Of a stretch of 64,000 nucleotides of DNA, positions 1 through 53,134 are shown piece after piece. A program made the position numbers and the translations under genes. Position 1 is the stretch's first letter. The number at the start of each line of letters is the position of its first letter. Under the pieces are notes generated by a model. It was not told the DNA's origin. It worked only from the letters and a program-made list of their open reading frames with translations, and searched no databases. Origin of the DNA: a virus (taxonomy: Duplodnaviria > Caudoviricetes). The stretch lies in IMG/VR virus record IMGVR_UViG_2974586258_000001, positions 58,964-122,963 of that record, one strand, 5' to 3'.

Positions 1-468
1 TTTTGTTTTCAGTCTATCGGCCAATTCCCTGTATTTACATTTAGGGCAACCACTAGACCTATTAAGTACATTGTCAGCTCTTGTTATCCAAGTGTGTTTA
101 TCAATGTTGCAAAGGAGTTTAATTTTTGTGGACTTACCTTTATAATTTTCGGTGAACCCGCAAACCTGAACATCTTTTCCATTTAAATTGCGAGAGATTC
201 TTAGTAAGTATTGCCATGATTTCCACCTATGATTTTTCGCGCAGCCGCATGGTTTCTTCCCTTCTTTTAAGTGATATTTTGTACTGACGAAATAACCATC
301 TGGAAATAGCTCTCTATCCTTAGAACACTCTGTGCATGTAACTTTGAAAGTAGTTTGTTTTCCTTTAATATTCTCATGCACACCTACAACTTCTAACTTA
401 CCATCTTTGGATTTCCAACCAATAAAGGTGTTTTCCTTTTCGCTGTTAGTGATACGTCCTCCATAAAT
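1..468 (-). mobile_element. Zn-ribbon/GIY-YIG-like homing endonuclease family copy 1 (5' part, runs off the window edge)
   Basis: Manual translation gives FIGWKSKDGKLEVVG...FKVTCTECSKDRELFPDGYFVSTKYHLKEGKKPCGC, matching the other copies; no ATG/GTG/TTG start in frame (ATT at 468 or ATC at 453). Confidence 0.8.
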
Positions 469-1014
469 TTAAGTAATACTTACATCAGAGACCACTTCCA
501 CATCTTGAATGGGACCTCTTATAGTGCTGGTAAGACGAACACGAAGAAGATCTTCAAATACTCCGTAATCAGAGTCTACGAAAAGGCAGTTAAAAGTAAT
601 AACAAATCTAGACCTATCTTCATATTCTTGATAATTTAGTACTACTCGTTGTTTTATTGCATTTGTGCAAGAAGCAAAAGCGAATCTCGGATCTTTAAAA
701 TATTCATAGTTAATCCAAGGAAGATGAAGAGAATGTTTTATTTTTGCAGCATCATTTAATGTATCACCTTTGCAAACAGTAATGATAAAATTAACTTGGC
801 TATTCCAACTTTGTCTCACAAAACCATTATCATCCAATTCTTCATTGGAGTGCCAATTAGGGTCTGCAATAACCGATTGCTCAATCATTACATAGTCATC
901 AGTTTGTTTAGGGATTACAGATTCACCTACCAATATTAATTTTCTATTTGTTACGGTTTTAATAAAGAAACCTAACTTATTGGTAAGGTCTTGAATTAAT
1001 GTTTCATCATGCAC
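469..1014 (-). CDS. putative neck/tail-terminator protein
   Basis: 181 aa; position after head-completion genes in a typical myovirus gene order. Confidence 0.55.
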   Translation of the reverse strand: MHDETLIQDLTNKLGFFIKTVTNRKLILVGESVIPKQTDDYVMIEQSVIADPNWHSNEELDDNGFVRQSWNSQVNFIITVCKGDTLNDAAKIKHSLHLPWINYEYFKDPRFAFASCTNAIKQRVVLNYQEYEDRSRFVITFNCLFVDSDYGVFEDLLRVRLTSTIRGPIQDVEVVSDVSIT

Positions 1015-1023
1015 TAAAACTCC

Positions 1024-1443
1024 TTACTCAAAAGCACTTGGTTCTAAGATAACTAAATATTGATAACGCGATACGCCAGTATATGGGAAACTAAGAGCAC
1101 GTAATACAGTAAACCACAACTGTCTACCTGTAATACTATTCAATTGCACTTGGTCACTCATAATTCCTGTACCATCAATGCCAACAATCAAAGGGTCTGA
1201 TGTCCACAAATAATATGATTCATAACTCTTTAGTCCGGCTTCAGATAATTGACTTTCAAACTTCTTAACAGCATCGCCAGTCAATGGTTGAACAGAACAC
1301 TTATTAATTGTTTTGTTTGTAAAAGTTATTGTGTTATTATCATTCTCAAACGGACTACTTGGGTCTTTTACCGAGGATCTTGAACGTGCATTCAATATAA
1401 CTTGAGGTAGGAGTGAATTAGACCCAATTAATGAGTAACTCAT
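1024..1443 (-). CDS. putative head-closure/neck protein
   Basis: 139 aa, SVQP motif, synteny. Confidence 0.5.
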   Translation of the reverse strand: MSYSLIGSNSLLPQVILNARSRSSVKDPSSPFENDNNTITFTNKTINKCSVQPLTGDAVKKFESQLSEAGLKSYESYYLWTSDPLIVGIDGTGIMSDQVQLNSITGRQLWFTVLRALSFPYTGVSRYQYLVILEPSAFE

Positions 1444-1955
1444 TAGAATCTACCTCCTTTGTTGAAGTTGTATTCAGCATTCTGTGTAACTTTATATTTG
1501 CAGGAGTCACGAAGATCTCCAAAATGAATCATAGCTTCATCAAACCCTTTCTGTTTTGCCCAATCTGGACTAACCTTCGGATTAGAGAAAGTTCCTGCAT
1601 CAATAGTAAATTGGATAGACTCAACATACTTCTGACCTACAACCTTCAATGCAGTTTCTGGCATCTTTCCTGCAACCACAATACTTCTGTAAACATTCTT
1701 AATTAATCTGGGAAGTTCATACTTGAAAGATAAAGAGCTTGTTAACATCACATTACGTTGAGGAAGGTTCCCGTAACCAAATTCATGGATGTTCATCAAC
1801 TGTGCTGTGGTCATTCCAGAATAATGTGGATCATCATAGAAACCAGCTTCAACTTGTGTTTTAACTAGTTGTTCTAATCGTTTCTCAAATCTTCGTAAAC
1901 CTGACATATCCATTTTTGTTGTAGCTTTCATTTTAATCATAAAATATAACTCCAA
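1443..1955 (-). CDS. putative tail-completion/neck protein
   Basis: HEFG..NLPQR motif and K.KGFD..MI..G.L C-terminus typical of neck proteins; true start may be slightly downstream. Confidence 0.6.
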   Translation of the reverse strand: MELYFMIKMKATTKMDMSGLRRFEKRLEQLVKTQVEAGFYDDPHYSGMTTAQLMNIHEFGYGNLPQRNVMLTSSLSFKYELPRLIKNVYRSIVVAGKMPETALKVVGQKYVESIQFTIDAGTFSNPKVSPDWAKQKGFDEAMIHFGDLRDSCKYKVTQNAEYNFNKGGRF

Positions 1956-1966
1956 GCTACATAAGT

Positions 1967-2470
1967 TTAGTCTTCATAAACAAAAGGGTTTTTAGGGTTT
2001 CGATATCGTGAGGTGTAGTCAACAACACCATCAACACTATAAGCACCTTTGCTGTTTGGATCTTTACGAACTTCTTCAAATTTATCTTTGCGTACACCGC
2101 CGATGATAATGAGGTTATCAAAACCACCAAGGCTTGGGTCAATGAAGTCTGGATTCTCTGTGATATATTGCAGCAAATCTTTCCAAGCTTGTAATTGTGA
2201 TCCACCAGTAACAGATATCTGTTCTTGTCCTATCTTTTCAGTGCGACCTGTTCCTACATTACCAGAACTAACTGTTTTGGATATTAGATACTGAAGACAT
2301 GAAACTGTGGTGTTCCAAAGGACAAGAGGTTCGTTCTCAGGTTTATTGTCCACATCGAATTGCAATTCCCACCGAGATAAAAACAAATCAATCGTGGCAG
2401 TAGGTAAAAGTTGTTCAGAGATATCCCCGAGGATAACTCTAATATAAGCGATTCTTTCCTCGTGAGTCAT
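1967..2470 (-). CDS. putative head-tail adaptor
   Basis: 167 aa with an EKIG..QIS motif; follows the capsid cluster. Confidence 0.55.
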   Translation of the reverse strand: MTHEERIAYIRVILGDISEQLLPTATIDLFLSRWELQFDVDNKPENEPLVLWNTTVSCLQYLISKTVSSGNVGTGRTEKIGQEQISVTGGSQLQAWKDLLQYITENPDFIDPSLGGFDNLIIIGGVRKDKFEEVRKDPNSKGAYSVDGVVDYTSRYRNPKNPFVYED

Positions 2471-2644
2471 ATTATCCTCAGAACTTAAATAGTATTAGAT
2501 ATTTCATATCTGTTGCAAAAATTAATAATTAAATAGTTTTGGTTCATTAACAAATCTTACCACAAATATATAAAATTTTCAATCTGTTAAAGAACTTTAT
2601 TATTTAAAACTACTAAATATTTACAACTTATAACACCTAGCCTA

Positions 2645-2959
2645 TTATTTTGCTTTAGTACGACCGCGAGGTTTTGGGGCTTCTTCAGCTTTAACTACTT
2701 CTGTTTCAGTTTGTTTTTCTTCTTGGAAACCAAGCAGTGTTACAAACGGAAGTTCAAAACATTCTTCAACATTTAATTTGGCATTTGCATGTTCAATCAG
2801 AGCACGAATAAAGAAGTGGAAGTTAGGGGTCTGATACTCATGGCCATCTTTTGTTACAAAACAATAATCAAAAGAAACTAATGTCTTTTCATAATCAATA
2901 TCAGAGACTTTGGAAATTGCTGACAATACCTCAGCTTTAGTTACATATTCTTGCTGCAT
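2645..2959 (-). CDS. hypothetical virion-associated protein
   Basis: 104-aa ORF downstream of MCP; basic C-terminus KPRGRTKAK. Confidence 0.6.
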   Translation of the reverse strand: MQQEYVTKAEVLSAISKVSDIDYEKTLVSFDYCFVTKDGHEYQTPNFHFFIRALIEHANAKLNVEECFELPFVTLLGFQEEKQTETEVVKAEEAPKPRGRTKAK

Positions 2960-2989
2960 TATTAATCCTATTTGCTATGCTATATCATA

Positions 2990-3022
2990 AACAAAGGCCG
3001 CCACCCTTAACGGGGGCAGCCT
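2990..3022 (-). terminator. intrinsic terminator after major capsid gene
   Basis: Minus-strand hairpin AGGCTGCC-CCCGTTAAGGGT-GGCGGCCT followed by TTGTTT. Confidence 0.75.
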
Positions 3023-3042
3023 AAGAGCTTACTTACAAATTA

Positions 3043-4032
3043 TTATACAGAAGTCATCTTGATGACAAGTTCAGGACGAGAGTTTACACACAGTACAGAA
3101 CTTTCAGTCTCAAGCATCTGGCTACGACCATTCTTAACTTCGTTAAGGAACAGGTATGCCTCACGAGCAGTGGTGTTAGCAAATGCAACATGGTCAGCAG
3201 GAGCAAAGTGCATGGTGAACATACCTTCAATGCCACGGGGGAACATGTACGCTTCACCAGTGGGGATATAACCAGAAATATCTTCCATGAAGGTGTAACC
3301 CTTGTGGACGAAGTAACGGTTGTTCAGATCACCACCAAGGCGCTCACGCAGAGGTTCTTGAGTAGAAGCGTAACGATCATATGCTTGCTTAACAAACGGG
3401 TTGTCAATCAGCTTTTGGAACCAAGTACGAGAACACAGAACTACAATGCTATAACCATCAGCACCATTACCAGCTTTATCGATAATAACAGAACGACCTT
3501 GTTCTTCGATAGTGGTCAGGGGGTCGATAGTGGTAGAGGCAAATGCAACAGGAACAGTAGTCTGAGTTTGACCCCAAACAGTGAAATAGTTGTAAGTGCC
3601 AGTAGAAGCATCACCACCAGTACCCATGATAGCTTGAACCATCAGTTTCTCACGTTGTTCTTGGTGAGTCTTTTGGATCATAGAGGTACGGCGCATAACT
3701 ACATCTTCTACGGTCTTAGGTGCATTGGGGTCTGCATAAGAAACAAAGTTCTGCACATCACCAGCTTGAATAGCGCCATCCAGAGGATAGAATGGGATCT
3801 TGAACTGTTTAGCTACAGCGTCTTCGCTTTGAATGAAGTTACGCTCGCCACCACGCAGGCGACCGGGAATAGCACCACGGTTCCAAGAAACTTTCTTAAC
3901 TTCACAAATATCAGACTGGTGATATTCTGGAACGAAAAGCTCCATGTTGGTAACAAGGGTATTCTGACGAGGTGCAACCTCAAGCAGATGGGAAAAATCT
4001 AGAAAAGTAAAACCAGTATTAACTACGCTCAT
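3043..4032 (-). CDS. major capsid protein (HK97 fold)
   Basis: 329 aa with strongly biased codons; C-terminal E-S--LCVNSRPEL; lies after scaffold and decoration genes, followed by a terminator. Confidence 0.88.
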   Translation of the reverse strand: MSVVNTGFTFLDFSHLLEVAPRQNTLVTNMELFVPEYHQSDICEVKKVSWNRGAIPGRLRGGERNFIQSEDAVAKQFKIPFYPLDGAIQAGDVQNFVSYADPNAPKTVEDVVMRRTSMIQKTHQEQREKLMVQAIMGTGGDASTGTYNYFTVWGQTQTTVPVAFASTTIDPLTTIEEQGRSVIIDKAGNGADGYSIVVLCSRTWFQKLIDNPFVKQAYDRYASTQEPLRERLGGDLNNRYFVHKGYTFMEDISGYIPTGEAYMFPRGIEGMFTMHFAPADHVAFANTTAREAYLFLNEVKNGRSQMLETESSVLCVNSRPELVIKMTSV

Positions 4033-4059
4033 TTATTTTAACTCCGAATTATTAAATTA

Positions 4060-6642: not shown

Positions 6643-7665
6643 TTAAACTTTCTTCTTTGTTAAGATATACAGAGCGTCGGTAATAAGGTTTTCCAAAACA
6701 ACTAGATTATTAATGTAGGATGTTTCTGTAAATCCATCTTGGAACTCTTCTTTGGATACAACACCAATTTCAATTTCAGAGTTTTTAATGAAGTTTTCAA
6801 TGTACAATGGAATAGATCCATCTTCAAGAGTAGCAGACCAGATTCTTTTATATCCGTATTCTGTTTCACGTTTCTGCTTTTTAATTCTTGCAAGTTCTTT
6901 TTGGTTTGTTATTCCGAATTTTATAAAACTATGACTGTCTTTTGTCCACTGATAAACATAGAAAGTTCCATGTTTGCTGGTAGAATACCCATTAATAGCG
7001 CAACCATTACAACGACTTCCTTGATTTACAAAACTGTGATAACTGACATTTTGTTTTCCATGAGTTTTACAGATGTACTCAAACCTAGTTTTGTGGGTAG
7101 TTCTATACTTATCAACAAAACCTACAACATCATAATCCATTTCTTTGCAGATGTCAATGCATTTTTGTAGTGCTTCTTGTTCCGTTGGTTTATAAACGCC
7201 CGAGCACTTAGGGCAACCCTTGTCACTATTAATAATGTCATTAATTCTTGCAATCCATTTATGCCCATCTTTTAAACATTCAAGGTTTAGTTTGGTGTTT
7301 TGATTTTTAAACTCTTCTGTAAAACCGTGGACGATGAACCCTTTCTTTTCTCCTGCTCTACGAGCTAATATTAAATACTGCCAGTCAAACCACCTTACAT
7401 TCTTGCCACAACCGCATGGTTTTAAATCATTAACCAAATTACTTTTGACACTAACAAAATAGCCATCAGGGAATAATTCAGGATCTTTGGAACATTCAGT
7501 ACAGGCAACTCTGAATGTAGTATGTGTACCTTGTTTTCCATCGATACCAATAACTTCTAATCTCCCATCTGGACTTTTCCAACCAATAAAATCTTCTGGT
7601 TTTTGTCGTTTTGCTCTCTTCTTCTTTTCTGTCATATTTAAATTACCTCTTGAAATTATGTCCAC
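6643..7665 (-). mobile_element. homing endonuclease family copy 2 (divergent C-terminal nuclease)
   Basis: Family N-terminus FIGWKSPDG..CTECSKD.ELFPDGYF..KPCGC; C-terminus FYVY..FIKFGIT..RI; own promoter near 7672-7699; likely start is the later ATG (MTEKK). Confidence 0.75.
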
Positions 7666-9304: not shown

Positions 9305-10473
9305 TTAAAAGTAGCGACTTTTATTTAAACCTGATATCATTGTAGGTGCATTGATTGTTGGCATTGTTACTGCTGAAACACTCATTGTTTTAGCAAGATA
9401 GGAGAAAACTGAAGCACAAGCATCAGGCCAGTCATCTTTTCTGTCTGCCGTGGACCTTTCTCCATCGAAACTTTCAAGCTCTTTATAGAAAGCTGCAAGT
9501 GTTGCAGGTTCAAAAGTATCTTCAACAATTGATACTAACCCATTCTGGCAAGCAGAACTGAACGCCTCAAACCGTTTTAGTTTTGATTTATTAGATGGAT
9601 TGGGGTCTTCTTTTACAATAAAACCCTCATTAGTAAACATTTTAGCCATCTCGTTAAACGCAAACGCACCAGCTTGTCCTGGATCTTTAGGTAAAACCAC
9701 AATAGTATCTGAGCCATCATGTTTGGCCTGTAACAACATCAAAGTATCACGAACACCGGGGCGTTTTCTAAACCTACCGTTCTGTCTAGTTAATTCATCA
9801 AGAGTCTCTTGAATATAATCCCCAACAATAATATAAGTATCTTGATTTGTTTTTAGCATTTTGATACTTGCAGTATAGTCAGGATATCTATTCTTATCAG
9901 ATGGTTCAGCCGAAGCTAAGTCCCATCCTCGTGCTTCTGTACAGTTCAATGGTACTTTGTCTAGTTTATTTAACCAACTTCGCTGGAAATAGTTAGAACC
10001 TTCTGGACGAGCATACCAGTTACCGTCCAATAGTCTGGCGCGGTTAATTGGTGACTGAGCTTTCAGTGCAGACAAATACTTTGGGTTAGATTTTATTAGT
10101 GCTGGGTTATCGAAGATAGTTCCGCTGATAAAAGTAAATGACATAGGGGGAATATAAATTCTTTCACCATCATTTTCTTGATAACAAATATCAGGGTACG
10201 CTTCTGCTAACTCTTCCTCTGTATTAGCAAAAATAGGTTTATCATCAACAATAACGAAGTACCTAATAACTCCGTCTTTACTCTGGTCTGGATAGCCTTC
10301 TGGATCCAAATACCACTCAACGAACGATAACACCCAACTGTCCGGTGATGGATTACAAGTACCCATACAGAAACTATCGCATTCTGCTTCAGAACGGAGA
10401 CGACCTATTAGATATAAAAATTGAGATTGTGAGAAATGTGTTAATTCGTCGAAACCAACAAAAGAATATTGTA
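9305..10473 (-). CDS. terL: terminase large subunit, exon 2
   Basis: Walker B FVGFDE, coupling motif GTCNP, nuclease WDLA and DDWPDA. Confidence 0.9.
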
Positions 10474-10773
10474 CTTTTATGTTCGGAAAGGCTCGCTAGA
10501 CCTATCCCGCATCACTTATGTTTATCAACATTAGCTGCTGCTCTATGTCTCCATAGAAGTTCAGACTATATCATCCACAACAATATGTTGCGGCCTACCG
10601 TTTCGAACACCATTAGCTTGTGTCCTACACCGCTACATTCATCACGGCTAGTCGTTGGGCATTTAGAAACAAATGTTTCATTTAGCACAGGATTGTCCTT
10701 AACTTAATACTAGGAGTTTCCCTGTTTAGGTAGGTTTGCTACACTAATCACTTAATGTAGGGGCTACAATTTA
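10474..10773 (-). mobile_element. group I intron without ORF in terL (300 nt)
   Basis: Exon 1 ends in U with P1 GGGU/GCCC; intron ends in G; P7 elements AACGACUAG and GAUAUAGUCU; P10 UUGUA/UACAA; splicing restores HQG-LQYSFVGFDE. Confidence 0.92.
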
Positions 10774-11146
10774 ACCCTTGATGGTTGGCCTCGGCTGTAT
10801 CTTCGTGCTCTAAGTGGGTGTATTTAAGGTTCCCACCACCTGTTCCTTCGAAAATAATCTCCATGTCTTTTTCACGGATTCTCGGATTAAGTGGTCTGAA
10901 AAGTTTCTTGCTTTCTGTAAACAATCCTCCGGCACCTTTAAGGGGGCCAGTTGTTCTTCGAAACATTACACCTTCAAAATTAGGGTCTTGATATGCGTGT
11001 TTTAATGCTTTTATTAACAGAAGTCTCGACTTGCCACTACCTGCGGCACCGCCGTATATCATTACATCTACTTTTGTATCAAAAGCTTTTCGTTGTTTTC
11101 CCTCTTGAGGGGCTAAATTAACAACATTATTTTGTTTAGTTGCCAA
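10774..11146 (-). CDS. terL: terminase large subunit, exon 1
   Basis: PQEGKQ adenine-binding motif and Walker A GGAAGSGKS; spliced product is 513 aa. Confidence 0.9.
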
Positions 11147-11494
11147 TTAACCTCCAAAATTAACTACAATACCTTTCTCTTGTTCATTTTCTTCAATTTT
11201 ATCTTCGGTTACTTCAACAGATTCTTCCAACTCTGCTGCCTCAGACTCGATTAGTTGTTTGTGAAGTTCAGCGGCCATCTCCAAGACCATGCGTGCTGAC
11301 GCATTTTGGACCTGAGGGGGTGCGCTTTTATCTGTCATCAATCTGTAGACAGTTTCTAATGCTTCCTCAGATATATTGATTATCTTGCTTTTTAAACGGA
11401 ACTGTGCTCGCTCAGAGTCGATTAACAACTTATCTTCTGATTTGGGGCGACCTCTCCCACGTTTCTTAGTTTTGTTTATTGCTACTGTACTCAT
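11147..11494 (-). CDS. putative terminase small subunit
   Basis: 115-aa helical protein immediately upstream of terL. Confidence 0.6.
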   Translation of the reverse strand: MSTVAINKTKKRGRGRPKSEDKLLIDSERAQFRLKSKIINISEEALETVYRLMTDKSAPPQVQNASARMVLEMAAELHKQLIESEAAELEESVEVTEDKIEENEQEKGIVVNFGG

Positions 11495-11607: not shown

Positions 11608-12846
11608 TTAATATTTACTATGTAAATCAACCTCTTGGAATTCACAATTATCTAATAATTTATTTAAAATATATAAAGAATCATTTTCAAAACACTCTGT
11701 TGACCAACCTACAGGATATTGGAAGTTGCGTTCACGAAGTTCTTTATGCAATTCTTGCTCATAATCGTAGATTTCCTGATGTGTTGCAGTAAAGATCCGT
11801 AACTTCTTGATATTCCTGATTCCAGACATAGATGGTATCCTCAAATCTTTAATTCTCTCATCTACATCAAAAGATCTTCCCACCTTAATAAACCTATTAT
11901 TGAAATTTAAAACGTAAAGGAAATCTTGTTCATCTTTTCTTTCTGGAAAATAACCATTACCATTTCTCAACTCCCTGTGTCTATCTTTAGAACAACCCAT
12001 ACAACGGTTGCCGTTATGCACAAAGTTACTATAAGATATAGACTGCTTACCATGGACAGGACAAATATATTCGAAATAAGATTTTTGAGTTTTGTACCCG
12101 TCAGGAAACCCTTGTGGTTCGTAATTCATTTCTCTACAAATGACTATACAACGTTCTAATGCAATGCCCTCTGGTAATCTGTACAACGCAGCTATCCTAT
12201 CTTTAGAGCAATAATTGCATCTACTACCTTTGTAGAAAAAATCAGCATATTTTACATTTTGCTTCCCGTGTTTTGGGCAAACATATTCAAAACGAGACTT
12301 GGCATTTTTATACCCTCCAACAAAACCAATCGCAATATAACCCATCTCTTGGCATATTAAACTGCAATTATTCATTGCTATTGCGTTATCCAACTTACAC
12401 CTTTTAGCAGTACTACTATTTTTACACTCTGGGCAACCACTCTTACCATTAATAACAGATGTAATAGATGTAGATTGCCATCTGTTCCCATCTTTCAGAC
12501 ACTCCAGATCCAATTTCGTATCTTGTCCTTGATAATCCTCTGCAAATCCGTGAACTATAAATCGACCTACTCCTAATCTCTCAACTATAATTATATATTG
12601 CCAATCTTCCCATTTATAAACAGAGCACCCGCAAGGCTTTTTATCGGCCTTTAAATTATACTTAGTACTAACAAAATAGCCATCTGGAAATAGTTCTTTA
12701 TCTTTGGAACATTCAGTGCAAGTAACTTTATACTTTATTGACTCATTTTTATTGATTGAGTAAACATCAACAACCTCCAACTTCCCGTCTCCAGATTTCC
12801 AACCTATGAACTCTTTTGCTTTTTCTAGTTTACCACTATTTTCCAA
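11608..12846 (-). mobile_element. homing endonuclease family copy 3 (duplicated central Zn repeat)
   Basis: Family N-terminus; two FEY.CP.HGKQ repeats; C-terminal FLYVLNF..FIKVGRSFDVDERIK. Confidence 0.8.
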
Positions 12847-12912: not shown

Positions 12913-13278
12913 TTAAATATTTAAACTACTGACTCTTCCTGTCTCTCTATCAATTACTAATCCGTATTTCGCAAAGACAGCATCAATTTCTTCGTCTGTG
13001 CAAGGTTTTCTGTTAATTTGCTCTAGATAACCTAACCAACGTTCTTCAAGAAACACATCAGGTGTATCATCGAACTTCTTATGAGCTTCTTGGCAGATTT
13101 CACAATCGCAATGAGGATGTAAAGCATCTTGTTCCATTCTATATCTCAAATCTTCTTTGAATTCTTGTTCTGTCACATTATTTTCATAATCCTCTCGGCG
13201 TTGCTTGGCAACTAATCTTTCCTCTTCTGTCATTTTACTTCGTGGTTTTCTAATTTCTAATTTATTTTCAGTCAACAT
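12913..13278 (-). CDS. hypothetical protein
   Basis: 121-aa ORF with SD AAGGAGA; contains HCDCEIC. Confidence 0.6.
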   Translation of the reverse strand: MLTENKLEIRKPRSKMTEEERLVAKQRREDYENNVTEQEFKEDLRYRMEQDALHPHCDCEICQEAHKKFDDTPDVFLEERWLGYLEQINRKPCTDEEIDAVFAKYGLVIDRETGRVSSLNI

Positions 13279-15494: not shown

Positions 15495-15584
15495 TGGTAG
15501 CCCTGTTCGGTAACGATCCGAAGTAACCCACTTATCTGGTGTACGAGTTTATAAATCTCGGTACTTTCCTTAAGCTACAGGGCC
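15495..15584 (-). tRNA. atypical tRNA with UAU anticodon (Ile) and long variable arm
   Basis: Acceptor GGCCCUG/CAGGGCU + ACCA, D stem GCUU/AAGU, anticodon loop UUUAUAA, T stem UUCGG/CCGAA. Confidence 0.75.
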
Positions 15585-24064: not shown

Positions 24065-24139
24065 TGGTTCGAGTGTGGTGAATCGAACACCAGAATTTTC
24101 CGCCCCAAACGGAACGACATACCACTTGCCTACACTCGG
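24065..24139 (-). tRNA. tRNA-Pro(UGG)
   Basis: Cloverleaf with anticodon loop UUUGGGG, T loop UUCGAUU and encoded CCA; C1:A72 mismatch. Confidence 0.9.
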
Positions 24140-39869: not shown

Positions 39870-40508
39870 TTGAGAAATCGGCGACTTTTGTTTTATAAAG
39901 GAGGAAATATGGAATATAAAGCAGGTGATATAGTGGTTGCTAGAAATATTCATAATGAAAATAAGGAATTTATTTTCGAGGTTGACGATATTGTTGTACA
40001 AGATGGGGTACAACTTCTTTATGGTAAAGATGTTTTTAGCGGAAAAAATGTGTATGCTGTACATGGACGGTATTGTAAATTGTACAGTAGAAGTGTAAAA
40101 GTTTCTGATGTAGAACGGTTATCAGAACTTACAAAAGAGGAACACCACAGAATGCCTCAAGGTTTGGATAGAGATTCACGCCACAAGTGGGCCAAGGAAA
40201 CATTAAGTGCTATTGAAAAACAGAATAACGAACCAATTGAATCAGATGGCAAATCTTCTAGTTACTATGACCTAAAACTTAGGCAGAAAACAATTGATTT
40301 TATTAAAGAAAACGACTATGTTAAGACAGAAATGCTGATTTATGATATTTTCGATAACGACTTTGATTTCTCTAATGCTTTTAAGTCACTTGTCCGTGCA
40401 TGGGGAACTGTGAATGGCGCAGGAAAGAAGGGTAACAGTCTTGATTATGAACTTAACAAAATTGATTATAGTGTAAATAAAATTCGAGAATATCGAGGTA
40501 ATGAATAA
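39870..40508 (+). CDS. conserved phage hypothetical protein
   Basis: SDG.SSSYY and F...NAFK...R motifs; likely start ATG near 39909. Confidence 0.6.
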   Translation: MRNRRLLFYKGGNMEYKAGDIVVARNIHNENKEFIFEVDDIVVQDGVQLLYGKDVFSGKNVYAVHGRYCKLYSRSVKVSDVERLSELTKEEHHRMPQGLDRDSRHKWAKETLSAIEKQNNEPIESDGKSSSYYDLKLRQKTIDFIKENDYVKTEMLIYDIFDNDFDFSNAFKSLVRAWGTVNGAGKKGNSLDYELNKIDYSVNKIREYRGNE

Positions 40509-41175
40509 TATGTGTATGTCTGAAGCCGCATATTTTTCGGAATATTTAAGGAAAAATTTTCCAACAAACAACCTAAGTGGGATAAGAAGATCCTTAGTTC
40601 GGGGAGTTGGATTAAATGATGCTGATTATATAATAAAGCATAAAACTAAAGGTAGACAGTTAGATTGTCCTGCATATCACGCATGGAGATTGATGTTATG
40701 TAGAGCACATAATGAAAAGTTTCATGCGAAACACGAAACATATAAGGATGTTCTTGTTTGTGATGAGTGGTTAATATTTAGTAATTTCAGAAAGTGGTTC
40801 ATATATAATCATGTAGATGGTTACCAACTTGATAAAGATTTGCTTAGTGAGAAAAGTGTTAAAATTTACTCACCAGAAACATGTATATATGTTCCTGCGT
40901 GGATAAACACCTTTATTACAGATAGCAAAGCGTCAAGAGGTAAGTATAAAATAGGCACGCACTGGAGAAAGGACAAGAATAAGTTTGCAGCAGAGTGTAG
41001 ACATCCGATGAAGCACGGTGGTAAATTTATAGGATATTTTGATAGTGAAGATGATGCATATGAAGCGTGGCTAAATAGAAAATTAGAAATTGCATTTGAA
41101 TTAAAACCAGAGATGGATAAAATAGATATAAGAATTTATCAATGTGTGATTAATATAATAAGGAACCTAGTATGA
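40501..41175 (+). mobile_element. HNH-type homing endonuclease with AP2-like C-terminus
   Basis: GVG.ND, CPAY..W..ML.R, EW..FSNF..W, LDKD, IYSPETC; related to 29567-30196. Confidence 0.78.
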
Positions 41176-41744
41176 ACATTGGAATTGATTTTGATTTGAC
41201 AGTTGTTGATTGCATATTCCAAGACGGCGCATGGATAGACCACCTAAATGCAATGTCTTATCGCTATATTTCAAAAGAACAATTTGCAGATATGGACAAA
41301 ATTGATTATAATCTTGGTAAATATTACCCAGACTTGACTGAATCAGAAAGCTTTAGTTTCTGGAAAGATACTTCACTATATCAAAAACTGAAACCATATA
41401 AAGCTGCTGTTGAAGTCATCAATAATATTGCAAAGAAAGGACACAAAATTGTGTTTATTAGCCACTGCCAGCAGAACCACTTCAAGAGTAAGGTAGTTGC
41501 AGCAAAAGAGTGGTTTGATATTCCAAAAGATTCCTTTGGTTTTATTGCAACAAAAGAGAAACATTTTGTTAATGTTGATGTAATGATTGATGACCGTAAT
41601 CTGTTCTTAAATTCTTTTGGTGATAAAGTTATTAAAATTAAATTCGATACCCCATTCACTCAGTGTGCGGAATTAAAAGTATCACTTGACTTTCACAGTA
41701 ATAGTTGGGAAGATATTGGAAGTTTTATTGAAAGTACTTTATAA
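41172..41744 (+). CDS. HAD-family 5'(3')-deoxyribonucleotidase
   Basis: IGIDFD.T.VD, K..W, MIDD. Confidence 0.8.
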   Translation: MNIGIDFDLTVVDCIFQDGAWIDHLNAMSYRYISKEQFADMDKIDYNLGKYYPDLTESESFSFWKDTSLYQKLKPYKAAVEVINNIAKKGHKIVFISHCQQNHFKSKVVAAKEWFDIPKDSFGFIATKEKHFVNVDVMIDDRNLFLNSFGDKVIKIKFDTPFTQCAELKVSLDFHSNSWEDIGSFIESTL

Positions 41745-41755
41745 ACAGGTAAACA

Positions 41756-42755
41756 ATGCAATTAAAAAATGAAAAATTAGATGATTTTATAGGTTGGGTT
41801 AGTCCTGATGGTAATTTAAAAGTGGTAGGGATTGCAGGTAAGAAAGGTAGGGGCCACAACATATAAAGTAACATGTAAAATCTGTTCACAAGATCCTGAA
41901 CTGTTTCCTCTAGGCTATTTTATTAGCACAAAATATAACTTAAAGAAAGGAAAGAAACCATGTGGTTGTGCGAAGAGTTGTCGATGGAGTGAAGAACAAT
42001 ATTTAGTTAGGGTTAGAAGGGTGGCAGAAACTAAATTTATCAAAGTTAATGGTTTTGCCGAAGAATTTAAAGGAAATAATACAAGAATAAATTGTGAATG
42101 TTTGAAAGATGGGTATAAATGGAAACCTATCATAAACACCATCTTAAGGAAATCCCACGGGTGCCCAAAATGCGCTAACCATGTGATAATAACAGAACAA
42201 GAAGCCTTATCTACATGCAAAAAGCTTTGTGAAGAAATGAATTATGAATTTTTAGGGTTTCCGGGAGGATATAAAACACAAGAATCACGGTTTGAATATA
42301 AATGCCCAAAACACGGATTACAAAATGTGATGTATGAGCCTTTTGTAAAAAGAGGATACCGCTGTTGGGGATGTGCAAAAGAAATGACAAATGGAAATGG
42401 TTTTTATCCAGAAAGAGCTGAAGAACAAGATTTTCTATATGTCTTGAATTTTGATGATAAGTTTATAAAAGTTGGTAGATCTTTTGATGTGGACGAAAGG
42501 ATTAAAGACCTTAAAAAACCTTCTGTTTCTGGAATTAAAAATATTGTAAAACTTAGAATCTTTACTGCTACACATCAAGAAATCTATGATTATGAACAAG
42601 AACTACATAATGAACTTCGTGAACGAAACTTTCAACACTATGTTGATTGGAGTACAGAGTGCTTTGAGAATGATTGTCGGTTTATTTTGAATAAACTTCT
42701 TGACCAGTGTAGTTTGGAGGAGGTGTATTGTGAGCAAAGACGCAGAAATTTATAA
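41756..42755 (+). pseudogene. homing endonuclease family copy 4, frameshifted
   Basis: MQLKNEKLDDFIGWVSPDG... is out of frame with ATTYKVTC... by one extra G in the run at 41850-41853. Confidence 0.75.
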
Positions 42756-46007: not shown

Positions 46008-48281
46008 ATGGAGGAAGAATTGATTAAGAGTGTAATCAAACGTAATGGTGAAGTTGTTGAGTTCGATCCAAACAAACTAAATAAGTGGGCTGAATGGGCC
46101 AGTGAATCTAAAGTATCTTGGTCAGAAATTGTAATGAGTGCAACTAAGAAACTATCTGATATGTGCTCCACCAAAGATATTCACAAAGCTCTTATTGATA
46201 CATGCCTTGAAAAGGCGACATACCAACACGCAGATGTTGCAGCACGACTCCTTGTTGGTGATATTTATAAAGAAGTATTTGGTGATTTTGTAGAACCTCC
46301 TTCTCTTTTTGAGTTCTATACAAAAATGGTAGAATCGGAAAAGTGGATTGACATGGAGTATGTCGAAGAAGAACTTGATGAGATTGACTCTTTTGTTATC
46401 CATAATAAAGATTTCGGATACCAATACTCAAGCCTTCGTCAAATGTGTGACAAATATATGCTTAAAAACAAGCATACTGGACAACTGTTTGAATCGCCCC
46501 AGTTTATGTATGTGGGTATTGCTCTGGCTGCTATGCAGAATCAACCACAAGAGCGGAGAGTTGAAGACGTAATCAAACTGTACACCTATCTGTCAGATTT
46601 GAAGATTAATGTCCCAACGCCTACACTTTCTGGTATGAGAACCAAGTTTAAAGGCTATGCAAGTTGCTGTTTGTTTACTACGCAAGATACAGCAGAGAGT
46701 ATTGAAGTAGGCAGCCACGTTGCTTATATGATGACTTGTGCTTCAGCGGGGATTGGTGGTTATATGCATACTCGTTCAGTAAAAGACCCTGTTCGTGGTG
46801 GTGACATTGTACACTATGGTAAACTACCTTACCTTCGTTATTACGAAAGTGCTGTCAAATCTACAAAGCAAGCAGTACGTGGCGGAAGTGCAACAATGCA
46901 CATTAATATTCTAGACCCTGAAATTGAAGATTTGATTCGTCTAAAACATCCGACTACACCGACACAAAAGCAGATTCGTGGTTTGGATTATAGTAATAGT
47001 ATGAATAAATTGTTTATTCAGAAAGTTGCCAAGAATGAGCAGTGGATGCTGATTAGTCCATATTACGCTCAAGATTTGTATGATAAGTTTTATAGTTCAG
47101 ATTATGAAGGTTTTGTTGAACTATATGATAAATATGACAAATCTGATATTAAAGAAAAGAAGTATATCAATGCTCGTGAATTGGCAATTGATATTCAAAA
47201 GAACTGGCGTGAATCTGGTAGAACATACAAGACCTTTATTGACGAGATTAATCGACATACTCCATTTAAAGAGCCAATCTACAGCTCAAATTTATGTCAA
47301 GAGATCACACTACCTACAAAAGGATTCAATAGCATTGTAGATTTGTATGGAACAGATGGGGACGCTGGTGAAGTTGCATTGTGTTTCATTGGGGCAATTG
47401 TAGCAGGACGTGTTACACCAGAAGAGTATGAAGATGTTGCTTATTATACAACCTTACTAATTGATAACACTATTGATTTGATGGAATACCCATTCCCTCA
47501 AATGGAAGTCACGGCAAAAGCACGTAGAAGTATCGGTGTTGGTATTGTTAACCTAGCTAATTATTTGGCATCGCAGAATGCAGGGTATACAAACAAGAAA
47601 GGTAAGCGTCTAATCCACGAACTTGCTGAAATGCACAGCTACTACATGCACAAAGCTTCTCTTCGTCTTGCAAAGGAGAAAGTTAATGCAGAGTGGATTG
47701 ATAAAACTAAGTACCCAGAAGGTTGGTTGCCTATTGACACATACAATAAAAATGTAGATGATGTTGTTGATAGTTCATTGGTGTTTGATTGGGAACAATT
47801 GCGCCAAGAGATTATTGAACAAGGTGGTTTGCGTAATAGCGTTCTTGAAGCACACATGCCCGGAGAAAGCAGTTCTCTAGCATCAAACACAACTAATGGT
47901 CTGTATCCAATTCGTAGCGAGTTGATTATTAAATCGTCTGACATCAACCAAATTCCAGTATTTGTGCCAGACTATGATAATTTGATTACACGATATAGTT
48001 ACGAGAAATGTTGGGATGTTCCGTTTAAAGATATGGTGGATATGTACGCAATTGTGCAGAAATTCTGTGGGCAAAGTATTAGCGCTGACTTTTATTTCGA
48101 TACATCTAAATATGAAGGGGGTAAAATTGGCGTAAGGGAAGACCTTGGGAACCTTATTTACATGTGTAAGATGGGATTAAAGACGCACTATTATTCAAAT
48201 ACCAAGTCAAAATCAGATGAAGAAATTGAGCAGATTACTTCGCAAGATTCTGGTTGTGCTAGTGGTGGATGCAGTCTGTAA
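46008..48281 (+). CDS. nrdA: ribonucleotide reductase class Ia alpha subunit
   Basis: ATP cone IKRNG, PTP, SCC, SNLCQE, LKTHYY, C-terminal C.SG.C. Confidence 0.96.
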   Translation: MEEELIKSVIKRNGEVVEFDPNKLNKWAEWASESKVSWSEIVMSATKKLSDMCSTKDIHKALIDTCLEKATYQHADVAARLLVGDIYKEVFGDFVEPPSLFEFYTKMVESEKWIDMEYVEEELDEIDSFVIHNKDFGYQYSSLRQMCDKYMLKNKHTGQLFESPQFMYVGIALAAMQNQPQERRVEDVIKLYTYLSDLKINVPTPTLSGMRTKFKGYASCCLFTTQDTAESIEVGSHVAYMMTCASAGIGGYMHTRSVKDPVRGGDIVHYGKLPYLRYYESAVKSTKQAVRGGSATMHINILDPEIEDLIRLKHPTTPTQKQIRGLDYSNSMNKLFIQKVAKNEQWMLISPYYAQDLYDKFYSSDYEGFVELYDKYDKSDIKEKKYINARELAIDIQKNWRESGRTYKTFIDEINRHTPFKEPIYSSNLCQEITLPTKGFNSIVDLYGTDGDAGEVALCFIGAIVAGRVTPEEYEDVAYYTTLLIDNTIDLMEYPFPQMEVTAKARRSIGVGIVNLANYLASQNAGYTNKKGKRLIHELAEMHSYYMHKASLRLAKEKVNAEWIDKTKYPEGWLPIDTYNKNVDDVVDSSLVFDWEQLRQEIIEQGGLRNSVLEAHMPGESSSLASNTTNGLYPIRSELIIKSSDINQIPVFVPDYDNLITRYSYEKCWDVPFKDMVDMYAIVQKFCGQSISADFYFDTSKYEGGKIGVREDLGNLIYMCKMGLKTHYYSNTKSKSDEEIEQITSQDSGCASGGCSL

Positions 48282-48398: not shown

Positions 48399-49397
48399 TT
48401 GGTTGAAAACAAAAATAAAAGAGAAAAACCAGAAGATCTTATAGGCTGGAAAAGCCTTGACGGAAGGTTAGAAGTTGTAGGAATTCATGGCAAGCAAGGA
48501 ACAAATGCACTATTTAAAGTAACTTGCACTGAGTGCTCTAAAGATAAAGAGCTATTTCCAGACGGATATTTTATTATTACAAAACGGGATTTAGTTAAAG
48601 GTAAAAAACCTTGTGGTTGCTCTAAGAAACCTGAATGGGAAGATTGGCAGTATTTGATTCTTGCTCGTAGAGCGGGAGAAAAGAAAGGTTTTATTGTCCA
48701 CGGTTTTGCTGAAGAATTTAAAAATTCATATACAAAACTAAACCTTGAATGTTTGAAAGATGGATATAAGTGGACTGCAAGTATCAATAATGTTATTAAT
48801 AAGAGGAGGGGTTGTTCTAAATGTAAAGGCATAACCTTAGCAGAACAACATAAAACCCCAGAACATATTGCATTACAGAAATGTGGTGACATCTGCAAAG
48901 AAATGAATTATGATGTTATAGGTTTTCCAGATTGTTATAAAAACAACCGTTCTCGTTTTGAATATGTCTGCAAAATTCATGGAAAACAAAATGTAAGTTA
49001 TCATAATTTTGTAAACCAAGGAACACGTTGTGGTGGTTGTGCTAAAGATTTAGGAAACGGCAACGGATACTACCCTGAAAGAAAAGATGAAATTGATTTT
49101 CTTTATGTTTTGAATTTTGATAACAAGTTTATCAAAGTAGGTAGATCTTTTGATGTTGATGAAAGAATTAAAGGGTTGCGTACGCTATCTAAAGTTCCAA
49201 AGAAAAAGATTCACAAACTTCGTATCTTTACAGCTACACACCAAGAGATTTATGACTATGAACAAGAACTACATAATGAACTTCGTGAACGTAACTTCCA
49301 ACATTATGTAGATTGGTCAACAGAGTGTTTTGAGAATGATTGTCAGTTTATTTTGAATAAACTACTTGACAATTGTGGATTAGAAGAAGTAAAATAA
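48399..49397 (+). mobile_element. homing endonuclease family copy 5, between nrdA and nrdB
   Basis: Family N- and C-terminal motifs intact. Confidence 0.82.
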
Positions 49398-49423
49398 CAT
49401 AAATTGAATAAAGGAGGAAATAT

Positions 49424-50512
49424 ATGGCAGTTTTTAATTATGAAAATACTCAACGACACGAAGGGCACTACCCCCTATTCCTTGGGCAGCAACCTGCACT
49501 TCACGATAGCATCAACACAACATATCCACAGATCTTTAAACTTTACAAGAAGCTGAAGTCTGTTGACTGGAGCGAAGATGAGGTTGACCTCCAACAATCC
49601 CGCTTCGATTTCGAGAATTGCCCCAAGAACCAATATGAAGTAATGGTTAAAACTTTGGCGTACCAATGGGAGCTTGACAGCATTGCTTCTCGTTCTATTG
49701 CACCACTTCTTGCACCATTTATTTCAAATAGCGAATATTGGGCAGCAATCTCTTATGTATCTCAAAATGAAGTACTCCATAGTTTGACGTACTCTGAGAT
49801 TGGTCGTCAGTGCTTCAAGAATCCAGAAGTGTTGTTTGCTGAAGTAGAGCGAAATGAAGTGACTGAACGTGGGTATGATTTTGGTATTGTATTTAAAGAA
49901 CTTGAACAACTCGGCGCAAAATACAATCTTGGCCTTGTAGATAAAAATGATCCAATTGTCAAAGAAACTATTGCAAAAACACTAGTAGCGTTATATGCTC
50001 TTGAAGGTATTAGTTTTATGGCTTCATTTGCTTGTACATTTGCCCTTGCACAACAAGATTTGTTTATCGGTGTTGCCAAGCTAGTTCAGAAAATCATGAT
50101 TGATGAACAATACCATACTCAGCTTGATAAAATTGTGATTGATATTTTGCAAAATGGCCCTGAATGGAAACAAACCTTCAAAAATATTAAACCTTGGGCA
50201 AAAGAATATCTTGATAAAGTAGTACAACGGGAGTTAAACTGGAATGAATACTTGTTCTCCGAGGGTAGAAGCATCCTTGGACTCAATAAGCAATTACTTG
50301 ATGAATGGGTTGTTTGGTCTGCAAATCCACTGTATAGTGTATTGAATGTGCAGAATGATAATAAAATGCCAGATTCACATCCAATTCCTTGGTTGAATGG
50401 TTGGATTGATATTGATTCACATCAAGTAGCAGCCCAAGAGGCTACTATTGTCAATTATGTTTTGAATGCAACCAAAGATGACCTTGGTGATGATGAGCTA
50501 GATTTCGACTAA
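49424..50512 (+). CDS. nrdB: ribonucleotide reductase beta subunit
   Basis: W...E, D, E..H..TY, LEG..F..SF, DE..H, A.QE....Y. Confidence 0.95.
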   Translation: MAVFNYENTQRHEGHYPLFLGQQPALHDSINTTYPQIFKLYKKLKSVDWSEDEVDLQQSRFDFENCPKNQYEVMVKTLAYQWELDSIASRSIAPLLAPFISNSEYWAAISYVSQNEVLHSLTYSEIGRQCFKNPEVLFAEVERNEVTERGYDFGIVFKELEQLGAKYNLGLVDKNDPIVKETIAKTLVALYALEGISFMASFACTFALAQQDLFIGVAKLVQKIMIDEQYHTQLDKIVIDILQNGPEWKQTFKNIKPWAKEYLDKVVQRELNWNEYLFSEGRSILGLNKQLLDEWVVWSANPLYSVLNVQNDNKMPDSHPIPWLNGWIDIDSHQVAAQEATIVNYVLNATKDDLGDDELDFD

Positions 50513-50515
50513 GAC

Positions 50516-50544
50516 TTGACAAAGCACATGGAAGTGCTTATAAT
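50516..50544 (+). promoter_or_regulatory. consensus sigma70 promoter
   Basis: TTGACA-17-TATAAT; spacer holds AAGCAC-N6-GTGCTT. Confidence 0.8.
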
Positions 50545-51193
50545 TAATTTAATACTTCCAACATCAAATATTAAGAGGTTGTATTATGAAAGATAAAACA
50601 ATAACTAAAGCAGATTATGGTACTTTTATGTACGAATCAGATTGGGGAGAAGAACCTTACCCTGAACTTGTCCAAATCTGGACAGATTTAGTTGCAAAGG
50701 ATCATGATATAGACAAGAAGTGCATTAAAATTTGGTGGTGTGCTCCTGTAGCCGAATATTGCATTGATATTGACGGGAAGTGGACAGGTTATTTTGAAGT
50801 CGATAACTATTTCCGTGGTGGGCATTGGAGTGGTTGGGATAAATTTGAAAACGGGAAAGGAGAAAATTATGAGTACATATAAAGTAAAAGAAGTTCAGCA
50901 ATGGGACACCTTAGTGAAAACCAAAGAAGGTAACTGGATTCCTGCCAGACCTGTAAACCACAAAGTCCGTAGTTTTTCTGAAAAACTAAAAGAATCATGG
51001 TTAGTTTTCATAGGAAAACTGGATACTTTGAAGTGGGAAGATCAGTAGGGTAAAATTATGAAAGATAAAGAGCTGTTACAGTGGATTCACGACAGGTTCG
51101 TGATTGTTTATGAAGAAAATAAAAATGTGGATTTTCTAAGAGCCTTGCGCGCCATAATTGCTCGAACTGATGATGACAAACAAAGCTCTCTAA

Positions 51194-51574
51194 TTGGAAT
51201 TTGTGATTGTGAAAATAAACCTAAAGGGTAGCACAAGAATTGTTTTTATGTTTAATAAAGTAGTTGTAAAAATGCCAACACTTAAATCTTGGAGACTATT
51301 TCTAAATGGGTTGTTAGCAAACTTACAAGAAAGACAGTTCTCAAAAATCAACAATAAAAATCTGGCTCGTGTATTATTCTCTGATCCTATTGGGTTAGTT
51401 ATAGTGATGGAAAGACTCAAAGAGGTGAGACATCGTGGACTATTCTTTGTAGAAGTACAAAAGATATGTTGTGAATCTGATCTGCATATTGATTTTTGGA
51501 TGTCCGATTGTAAGCCAGAAAATTATGGGTACAATAACAAAGGCAAACTTGTTAAATTGGATTTTGGCAATTAA
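51194..51574 (+). CDS. miniature protein-kinase-like protein
   Basis: G.TR.V, VVK, E, VME, DCKPEN, DFG. Confidence 0.6.
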   Translation: MEFVIVKINLKGSTRIVFMFNKVVVKMPTLKSWRLFLNGLLANLQERQFSKINNKNLARVLFSDPIGLVIVMERLKEVRHRGLFFVEVQKICCESDLHIDFWMSDCKPENYGYNNKGKLVKLDFGN

Positions 51575-52120
51575 GGGAGAAATTATGAACATTAAATCCA
51601 TTACTTTAGTCCTTGAAAATTGTGAAGAAATTACTTTTAAGTATCCTTCTGAGGTTTATATGTTGGAAACTGGCGACATTAAAGAACGGTATGTTTCTTA
51701 TTGTAATACTATTTGCAAACAGAAATACGTAGATGGTTTTTCTGTTGTTTTTGGCAAGGATTGTGGGGAGCTAGGCTCATTCTCCCCTGATGAAAATGAT
51801 CTTCCACTTAAACGCCTGAATCAGTACAAAGATGTTACTGGACTCTATATTGAGTACGATAATATGGAAGAAGATTTCGTAGGTGTTTCTTGGGAAGGCG
51901 TAGACAGTGAAACTCATCATTCAGGTCAAGGTTTAGTATTGACAGAAGAAGGCAATGTGTTATACTATTCTGAAACTGGCAACTACCAATGCAAATTGAA
52001 ACAAGAACCAGAATCAGTTGATATGTGGGCCTATATGGTAAAAGATTAAGGAGAAAATTATGTTTTGAAACATGTTGGTTGGTTGACGGAATCAGCAAAG
52101 CATTTTTAGGGGGGGATTAG

Positions 52121-53134
52121 TTGACTGAAAATAAGAAGAAACAACAAAAAGCAGAAGATTTTATTGGCTGGAAAAGCCCAGATGGGAAACTGGAAGTTGT
52201 CGGAATTGCAGGTAAGCAAGGAAATATCACAACATTCAAAGTAACTTGCACTGAGTGCTCCAAAGATAAAGAGTTATTTCCAGACGGATATTTTGTTAGC
52301 ACAAAAGGTAATTTAATAAAAGGAGTAAAACCTTGCGGCTGCTCTAAAAGTCCAAAGTGGAAAGCCTTTCAATTTTTAATCCTTGCAAGCAGAGCAGGAG
52401 AAAAGAAAAATTTTATTGTTCATGGTTTTGCAGAAGAATTTAAAAATCAAAAAACAAAATTAAATCTTGAGTGCTTAAAAGATGGTAATAGGTGGACGAC
52501 AAGCATCGCCAGCATTATTAATAGTGGAAATGGGTGCCCTAAGTGTAAAGGAGTTAACTTAGCAGAACAAAAGAAAACACCAGAACACACTGCACTACAA
52601 AAATGTATTGACATCTGCAAAGAAATGAATTATGATGTTATCGGTTTTCCAGACGGCTATAAAAACGCAAAGTCGCACTTTGAATATCTCTGCCCAGTAC
52701 ATGGAAAACAGATTGTTGGTTACAATAGCTTTGTAAATAATGGCAACCGTTGCATGTATTGCTGGAAAGACAGACAAGTTGAGTTAGGTAATGGTAACGG
52801 CTATTATCCAGAAAGAAAAGATGAAATTGATTTTCTTTATGTCTTGAATTTCAATGATAAATTCATTAAAGTTGGTAGAAGTTTTGATGTTGATGAAAGG
52901 ATTAAAGGTTTAAAATATGAATCTGGTGTCCCAAAGAATAAAATCCACAAACTTAGAATGCTCACAGCAACACATCAAGAAATATATAACTATGAACAAG
53001 AACTACATAGCGAACTTCGTGAACGTAAATTTCAATATTATGTAGATTGGTCAACAGAGTGTTTTGAGATTGAATCTATGTTTATTTTAAATAAATTATT
53101 AAATATTTGCGATATTGAAGAAGTCTCGTTTTAA
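52121..53134 (+). mobile_element. homing endonuclease family copy 6
   Basis: Very similar to copy 5 in both protein and DNA. Confidence 0.82.

Follow-up and report, generated by a model that had tools for sequence, protein, structure and literature searches.

Six related open reading frames (ORFs) stand beside conserved genes in a 64,000-nucleotide stretch of viral DNA, here called the window (bases 58,964-122,963 of the 122,963-bp record IMGVR_UViG_2974586258_000001, which has direct terminal repeats). What kind of gene these ORFs represent, and how they came to occupy such sites, is the question raised by this locus. The window is the right half of an Aeromonas Plateaulakevirus genome: identity is ~90% at the DNA level, over shared parts, to the Aeromonas phages vB_AceP_PAc, phiA009, phiA019, phiA047 and vB_AdhM_TS9, and the fetched records of PAc, phiA009, TS9 and phiA047 give the genus as Plateaulakevirus. 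Five relatives (PAc, phiA009, TS9, phiA047 and PhAER-4) were used for comparison, and 52-58% of the genome can be aligned at the nucleotide level to any one of them.

We estimate a probability of about 85% that the six ORFs, together with three more elsewhere in the genome of this Aeromonas Plateaulakevirus, are free-standing homing endonuclease genes (HEGs) of one nine-member family. This reading is supported by loci that are polymorphic among relatives, by alleles that coexist in one sample, by high identity of HEGs that decays into their flanks, and by incongruent histories of the two halves of the proteins. At the N terminus, an array of CapR-type zinc fingers, three or four repeats long, would read a long DNA site, and the C-terminal nuclease of the GIY-YIG superfamily (tail A, which is T5orf172, or tail B, a sister branch) would cut nearby. 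During a mixed infection of related phages, the allele lacking the HEG would be cut, and the HEG, along with neighboring sequence, would be copied across as the break is repaired from the genome that has it. Homing, the cleavage it requires and the target sites are what we infer from the domain content, residues, polymorphism, gradients and incongruence observed below.

Zinc-finger arrays and two types of nuclease tail

Every one of the six stretches translates into a clearly paralogous protein, as was proposed when the window was initially annotated (c1 to c6; Table 1). The count of six holds within the window, but a whole-genome search brings the total to nine, with three more copies (gA, gB and gC) lying left of it. 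The CapR homology domain PF21817 covers the shared N-terminal block and the Cys/His repeats (Pfam, E 1.8e-28 to 2.9e-52), and weaker DUF4379 and DUF723 matches accompany it. There are three PF21817 stretches in c2, c4, c5 and c6, two in c1 as far as the window covers it, and four in c3, the copy in which an extra repeat had been noticed. A sequence-profile search of solved structures gave only weak DUF4379-type zinc-ribbon matches for the repeats and none for the tail. All five complete copies match PHROG 681, “endonuclease” (E 1e-72 to 1e-82).

The proteins end in one of two tails. The FLYVLNF..FIKVGRSFDVDERIK ending, recognized from the letters alone in c3 to c6, is a T5orf172 domain (PF10544, 22.8-24.3 bits with a cutoff of 20); this tail A is shared by gA, gB and gC. 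The initial annotation also saw that copy 2 ends differently: c2 carries tail B, the type in which the full form of c1 ends as well. The order of domains in the copies is a DNA-binding array at the N terminus and a nuclease at the C terminus, and PF01541 (N-terminal GIY-YIG) is absent from every copy at E ≤ 0.1.

Key residues of both parts are preserved. Among 37 aligned family members from six genomes, one is truncated at a record origin and has lost its tail; the other 36 (24 tails of type A and 12 of type B) have the same Lys, Gly, Arg and Glu in the nuclease core without exception (36/36). None of the nine copies in this genome has lost a Cys or His ligand, and the cysteines at 43, 46, 72 and 74 in the first repeat of c6 form a CxxC, 24-26 residues, CxC arrangement. 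In CapR, the repressor encoded by the Vibrio cholerae satellite PLE (Netter et al. 2021; PMC8096241), mutation of the CxxC...CxC cysteines abolished DNA binding.

The likeness to CapR, which has the same Pfam DNA-binding repeat and shares cysteines 43/46/72/74 with c6, brings with it the possibility that some or all copies have been domesticated, either as CapR-like sequence-specific repressors or as weapons against satellites or competing phages. A precedent for the latter is Odn (Gp88) of ICP1, for which T5orf172 nuclease activity was shown, and in which that nuclease, joined to a RepA_N domain taken from the satellite, is repurposed for anti-satellite immunity (Barth et al. 2021; PMC8263062). 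The copies resemble Odn in their C-terminal T5orf172 domain, the conserved catalytic Arg and Glu, and the modular fusion to a DNA-binding part. In addition, c1 is unique among the six genomes, has no canonical start and directly follows a neck gene. However, CapR is a satellite-encoded repressor, whereas the copies are phage encoded and, unlike CapR, all keep a nuclease tail with the invariant Lys, Gly, Arg and Glu. Odn has RepA_N where the copies have CapR arrays and behave like homing genes, and a Pfam search found neither RepA_N nor any other satellite-derived domain in them. Intergenic placement beside essential genes, combined with polymorphism at exact junctions, is the pattern of free-standing HEGs, and domestication is accordingly judged very improbable.

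Tail B lies below the detection of the Pfam T5orf172 and MUG113 models, unlike the tails of the HEGs described by Barth, Dunham and Seed (2023; PMC10448857). The membership of c1 and c2 among T5orf172-type HEGs is therefore argued from sequence bridging and fold, not from a direct Pfam match. A word-indexed search gave 36 close relatives (58-100% identity); each is fused to CapR repeats, and a named nuclease domain is found in none (0/36). When the query was just the 119-residue tail, exhaustive phmmer reached 368 clusters, defined at 50% identity, at E ≤ 0.001 (70 at E ≤ 1e-10), and among the 150 listed the match nearly always extends to the C-terminal end of a protein of ~200-500 residues. 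Pfam families found on 141 carriers of tail B are CapR (90), DUF4379 (58), DUF723 (28), MUG113 (PF13455; 34) and T5orf172 (PF10544; 18). Over 141-142 sequences the tail-B family has invariant Tyr, Lys, Gly, Arg, Gly and Glu residues, which coincide with positions of the GIY-YIG core.

The predicted structure points the same way. In a model of full-length c2 (predicted local distance difference test [pLDDT] 78) the tail core is arranged as beta-beta-alpha-beta-alpha, and tail B modeled alone from 142 sequences reached a pLDDT of 94.7 and a predicted template modeling score (pTM) of 0.86. At Z ≥ 5 the tail-B model matched only 3 of 48,161 representative solved chains, each of them a GIY-YIG nuclease: At-HIGLE (Z 6.6, root mean square deviation 2.8, 88 aligned) and Slx1 (Z 6.0 and 5.6), values that are middling, as a Z under 8 can, by the tool's own warning, reflect a common arrangement. 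A second search gave the same three chains; lower in the lists stand the N-domain of AtGRXS16 (Z 3.9) and the GIY-YIG domain of UvrC (3.2) in one search and I-TevI (3.6) in the other. An hhalign comparison of tails A and B, with a probability of 29% and an E value of 5.8e-4, pairs their Tyr, Lys-x-Gly, Arg and Glu positions.

Could tail B instead be a structural or regulatory domain with no more than a common alpha/beta arrangement in its favor, so that c1 and c2 would be DNA-binding proteins that do not cleave? The missing Pfam nuclease match in c2, the Z values of 5.6-6.6, the hhalign probability and a Foldseek search of the PDB, in which neither the full c2 model nor the tail-only model found a match at E ≤ 0.001, all lean in that direction. 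It is nevertheless hardly credible, because the 52 matches to MUG113 or T5orf172 among the 141 homologous tails, the exclusively GIY-YIG identity of the chains at Z ≥ 5, the invariant core residues and the replacement of tail A by tail B on equivalent arrays at the same loci all speak for a nuclease. The nuclease C terminus expected by the initial annotation is thus borne out by the T5orf172 family for tail A and by the GIY-YIG fold for tail B.

The assignment of tail B to the T5orf172/MUG113 group, as a divergent branch, has moderate to good support. It is rather unlikely that this tail is a distinct, unnamed GIY-YIG branch that replaces T5orf172 in place. The exchange of tails is visible at two sites: between the protease and portal genes, tail B is present here and in three relatives, while TS9 has tail A on a 66%-identical array; at terL, tail B is present in four relatives, and tail A here and in phiA047.

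Occupancy of the loci and identity around them

Occupancy was read from the BLAST coordinates of 1.5-kb flanks and from annotations; junctions were set by BLAST boundaries, and MAFFT global alignment placed large gaps wrongly. The family members number about two in PAc, four in phiA009, nine in TS9, seven in phiA047 and six in PhAER-4. They do not stand at the same loci in all relatives, in line with the mobility initially suggested, and against the five every one of the nine loci is polymorphic. The flanks of c1 abut in 5/5 relatives, leaving the site empty. No relative (0/5) has a member at the place corresponding to c6, of which only the right flank is recognizable in PhAER-4 and TS9. The c4 site is filled only in phiA009, by a member that is 67% identical at the DNA level; in TS9, phiA047 and PhAER-4 it is empty, the flanks abutting with a 28-nt gap, and PAc has no family member there, each flank being aligned only in part. 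The c2 site is filled in four relatives and empty in PAc. At c3 all five relatives carry a member, of which only that of phiA047 is an ortholog (95.8%); in the remaining four the site is taken by other members, 345-430 residues long and uniformly B-tailed. For c5 (PhAER-4 could not be assessed and is left out of the counts), phiA047 has a 98% ortholog, phiA009 and TS9 have an empty site with a 41-nt spacer between nrdA and nrdB, and in PAc an HNH-type gene has taken the site. Left of the window, the gB site is empty in three relatives and not assessable in two, the gC site is empty in three and holds a different member in two, and at gA a different member is adjacent in PhAER-4, none is present in phiA009, and the rest are not assessable.

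The HNH-type gene in the nrdA/nrdB spacer of PAc has a counterpart in the window. At the DNA level, this 654-bp gene shares 71% identity with the HNH endonuclease gene located one gene upstream of c4, and a B-tailed member of the CapR family stands in PhAER-4 where the latter lies here. Different classes of HEG use the same sites.

Natural populations, sampled through environmental contigs from four independent studies, provide both alleles of one locus. One contig of run X1 (depth 187) passes from position 41719 to 42728 through 19 other letters, skipping the c4 cassette (41720-42727), and contigs of the same run that carry the cassette have depths of 5-7. A single sample therefore contains both the empty and the filled allele of c4. 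No sequencing run contained the whole of a 2-kb stretch, the best share being 0.61. The environmental sequences also bear on the reading frame of c4, which in this record is not open in one frame, the shift lying within a GGGG run at 41850-41853. In 4/4 environmental runs there is one letter fewer at 41850/41851, which puts c4 in one frame. A programmed frameshift in c4 is ruled out by this in-frame form; the shift is private to this record, as a homopolymer error or a recent mutation.

Some family members in the relatives have unusual structures. In the phiA047 ortholog of c5, ~227 nt of the nuclease tail are missing precisely where the circular record starts and ends, a gap that may be an assembly artifact. 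Another member in phiA047 (76541-77579) resembles c4 of this genome in that it changes frame close to the 5′ end. A 273-codon protein of TS9 (112362-113180, minus strand) has an A-type tail with a different front end in which no CapR array is recognizable.

Identity to phiA047 is higher in two of the HEGs than around them. Copy c3 is 95.8% identical, and terL 84-89%; c5 is 98.2% identical over 732 nt by BLAST (96-100% per 150-nt bin), and nrdA and nrdB 88-92%. Against phiA047, the one relative on which these gradients are based, identity per 150 nt outward from the HEG is 98.7, 96.7, 94.0, 90.0, 86.7 and 72.6% on the terL side of c3 and 99.3, 94.7, 90.0 and 88.7% on the nrdA side of c5. In comparison with HEG-free TS9, the most divergent bin of nrdA is 48046-48195 (78%, versus 87-97% elsewhere in nrdA). 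Gradients and a divergent nrdA end are what co-conversion and target-site divergence would be expected to produce. The last ~240 bp of nrdA are thus, on one or two comparisons, a candidate target of c5 and a putative co-conversion tract.

The same data can be set against a family of ancient, vertically inherited paralogs that is no longer mobile, in which differential loss has left presence/absence differences that are deletions only. Deep divergence of the paralogs, with no recent duplication or conversion tracts, is compatible with such a family, and so is the c2 locus, where the HEG is 74-78% identical and most flanks 82-90%, as expected for a long-resident, vertically inherited gene. Signs of decay can be added: the frameshifts in c4 and in one phiA047 copy, the startless c1 and the phiA047 ortholog of c5 that lacks ~227 nt of its tail. 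Loss alone, however, does not readily account for c3 and c5, which are 96-98% identical to phiA047 between flanks of 84-92% with gradients leading away from the HEG, nor for unrelated members or another class of HEG at the same sites in different phages. Empty and filled c4 alleles in one sample and the retention of all catalytic and zinc-ligand residues also argue against it, and the loss-only explanation is considered improbable.

Several results weigh against homing endonucleases as the explanation. Besides the limits on the identification of tail B, the derivation of the gradients from a single relative and the low identity of the c2 HEG, they concern the two copies with defective frames. 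In c1 there is no ATG, GTG or TTG upstream of the FIGWKS motif, and the ATG at 464-462 is in another frame; c4 is frameshifted as described. For these reasons c1 and c4, at least, may be inactive in this record. Furthermore, the step in identity across the nine HEG loci is not larger than at 142 control junctions (Mann-Whitney p = 0.72; a weak test in a genome that is mosaic throughout), and HEG flanks are not better conserved than other junctions (p 0.48-0.62; likewise weak, with nine loci). The idea of HEGs as boundaries of exchange, and a measurable effect of conserved neighbors, find no support here.

Incongruent histories of arrays and tails

The homing-endonuclease interpretation is strengthened by the modularity of the proteins. 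The initial annotation envisaged per-domain trees that disagree, and the histories of array and tail are indeed incongruent. Copies c2 and c5 are 71% identical in the array and 25% in the tail, whereas the relation is reversed for c4 and c5 (53% and 83%) and for gA and c5 (56% and 82%). A quick maximum-likelihood tree (IQ-TREE) built from 36 arrays requires seven changes of tail type, at least two of which are forced by well-supported branches. Constraining the 12 B-tailed members to a single clade costs 59 log-likelihood units and is rejected by the approximately unbiased (AU) test at a modest p value of 0.029.

The proposal of an intragenomic expansion finds no support in that wording, as no long stretch of high-identity DNA is shared among the nine copies. 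Their longest exact DNA match is 35 nt, only two short high-scoring segment pairs reach 80% identity, and the DNA comparison gave no sign of recent intragenomic gene conversion among them. By this measure the copies are old, diverged lineages circulating in the genus and not recent duplicates within this genome. Retargeting through shuffling of domains, with target sites that are putative, is consistent with the data. Taken with the nuclease C termini and the polymorphic loci, the incongruent domain trees uphold the view that these are free-standing genes of the homing-endonuclease type.

Neighboring genes, known systems and significance

The neighbors first named for the copies are confirmed in all but one case. 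Copy c1 is preceded by the genes for a neck terminator and Neck1, its ORF beginning directly after the stop of the neck-terminator gene; c2 is flanked by an XkdF-type protease gene and the portal gene; c4 by an NT5C nucleotidase gene and thyX; c5 by nrdA and nrdB; and c6 precedes a thioredoxin-like gene and nrdD. The terS gene assigned to the vicinity of c3 was not identified; c3 instead stands next to terL, which a group I intron interrupts. For the copies left of the window, the neighbor of gA codes for an HNH endonuclease, that of gB for a Gp2.5-like single-strand-binding protein, and that of gC for a tail fibre or spike. All copies lie between genes. No family ORF is inside the only Rfam group I intron of the window, and c3 is free-standing, 825 bp away from that intron. 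Start codons are TTG behind a strong Shine-Dalgarno sequence in c3, c5 and c6, GTG in gC, and ATG in the remaining copies except c1; the start of c2 is likely the ATG at 7635, giving 330 amino acids.

Table 1. Positions of the HEG copies and of other features, numbered from the first letter of the window
Feature	Position	Strand	Description
c1	1-468	-	N-terminal 156 of 334 codons, CapR repeats; gene extends left to genome position 58427
c2	6643-7665	-	Three CapR repeats and B-type GIY-YIG-like tail (tail 6646-6990)
c3	11608-12846	-	Four CapR repeats and T5orf172 tail; upstream of intron-split terL
c4	41756-42755	+	CapR repeats and T5orf172 tail; frameshifted in this record
c5	48399-49397	+	Three CapR repeats and T5orf172 tail; occupies nrdA-nrdB intergenic space
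c6	52121-53134	+	Three CapR repeats and T5orf172 tail; upstream of thioredoxin-like gene and nrdD
nrdA 3′ end	48046-48281	+	94.7-99.3% identical to HEG-carrying phiA047, 78-86% to HEG-free TS9
HNH-type endonuclease gene	40501-41175	+	PHROG 953; one gene upstream of c4
Group I intron in terL	10541-10783	-	Rfam RF00028, 85.3 bits
tRNA-Ile	15495-15584	-	Anticodon TAT, 90 nt; ARAGORN
tRNA-Pro	24065-24139	-	TGG
182-codon ORF	56171-56719	+	Glyco_hydro_19 (chitinase class I) match, E 1.1e-11

The terL region (9305-11494, minus strand) is in pieces, with the C-terminal part at 9305-10366 and the middle part at 10748-11146. The intron site varies among the relatives: TS9 has ~1.07 kb extra, phiA047 has ~1.18 kb between the homologous parts, and phiA009 has ~300 bp of nonhomologous sequence; intron-like sequence of 71-79% identity occurs elsewhere in four relatives. 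The stop of a 115-codon ORF (11147-11494, minus strand), which has no Pfam match and is similar only to PHROG 3330 (unknown function), abuts the in-frame TTG start of the middle terL piece; the two could be separate genes, or reflect a further interruption or an in-frame stop. Directly upstream of c3 lies a 121-codon ORF (12913-13278, minus strand) without a PHROG or Pfam match, which is missing from phiA047 through an indel of ~440 bp with 93-99% identity on both sides.

Further differences surround the ribonucleotide reductase genes. At 47291-47296 within nrdA, PAc, phiA009 and phiA047 have a ~237-bp insertion, where their annotated nrdA is split, and neither this genome nor TS9 has it; the insertion is probably another intron. 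The nrdD gene (53476-55295, 592 codons) has DNA-level likeness only to that of phiA047 (91.8%); in the remaining four relatives nrdD is another allele, which does not match this stretch at the nucleotide level and is 2091 bp long in phiA009 and TS9. A segment of ~2.7 kb (50578-53265) is absent from phiA047, where 123 bp stand in its place; it contains c6 and small ORFs without a Pfam family (50586-50882, 50764-51048, 51194-51574 and 51471-52049). The ORF with the Glyco_hydro_19 match is possibly an endolysin.

Free-standing HEGs of T4-like phages include the seg genes and mobE, an HNH enzyme gene between nrdA and nrdB. In Seg enzymes and I-TevI, the GIY-YIG domain is N-terminal and the DNA-binding part C-terminal. 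The copies are like these HEGs in their intergenic position beside essential genes (nrdA/nrdB included), polymorphism, apparent co-conversion of flanks and, with Seg and I-TevI, the GIY-YIG core, but the domain order of Seg and I-TevI is reversed relative to theirs.

The closest known system is that of Barth, Dunham and Seed (2023; PMC10448857), who described T5orf172 HEGs with repeated CapR/DUF723/DUF4379 zinc fingers in ICP1 and other phages, placed near terminase, ribonucleotide reductase and capsid genes. They treated MUG113 and T5orf172 as one family, documented recombination of repeats and swapping of domains, and named Plateaulakeviruses as a lineage rich in these genes (PMC10448857). 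The copies have the same architecture, placement, variation in repeat number and domain swapping, and the arrangement of c3 and terL mirrors that of ICP1, in which a T5orf172 HEG adjoins an intron-split terL (PMC10448857). The family, its expansion in the genus, its position beside essential genes and the shuffling of its domains are already published in that paper. It does not describe this genome or its loci, and the sections consulted contain no Plateaulakevirus occupancy map, coexisting alleles, flank gradients or placement of tail B, although its supplementary tables may overlap with related isolates. Within literature naming Plateaulakevirus, HEGs are treated only in PMC10448857, among the matches listed.

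The present locus adds a worked example in which nine loci have filled, empty or replaced states across six genomes, and it shows filled and empty alleles occurring together in a natural sample. For the target of a Plateaulakevirus HEG, the final ~240 bp of nrdA are a concrete candidate. Tail B, a sister branch of considerable size, escapes the Pfam T5orf172 and MUG113 models, so surveys that depend on them will undercount such genes. If tail B does prove to be a separate branch that replaces T5orf172 in place, and if the two tails differ in cleavage chemistry, cut-site offset or inhibitor sensitivity, swapping the nuclease at a kept address would constitute a second axis of HEG evolution, and such swapping could let an incoming HEG oust the resident one.

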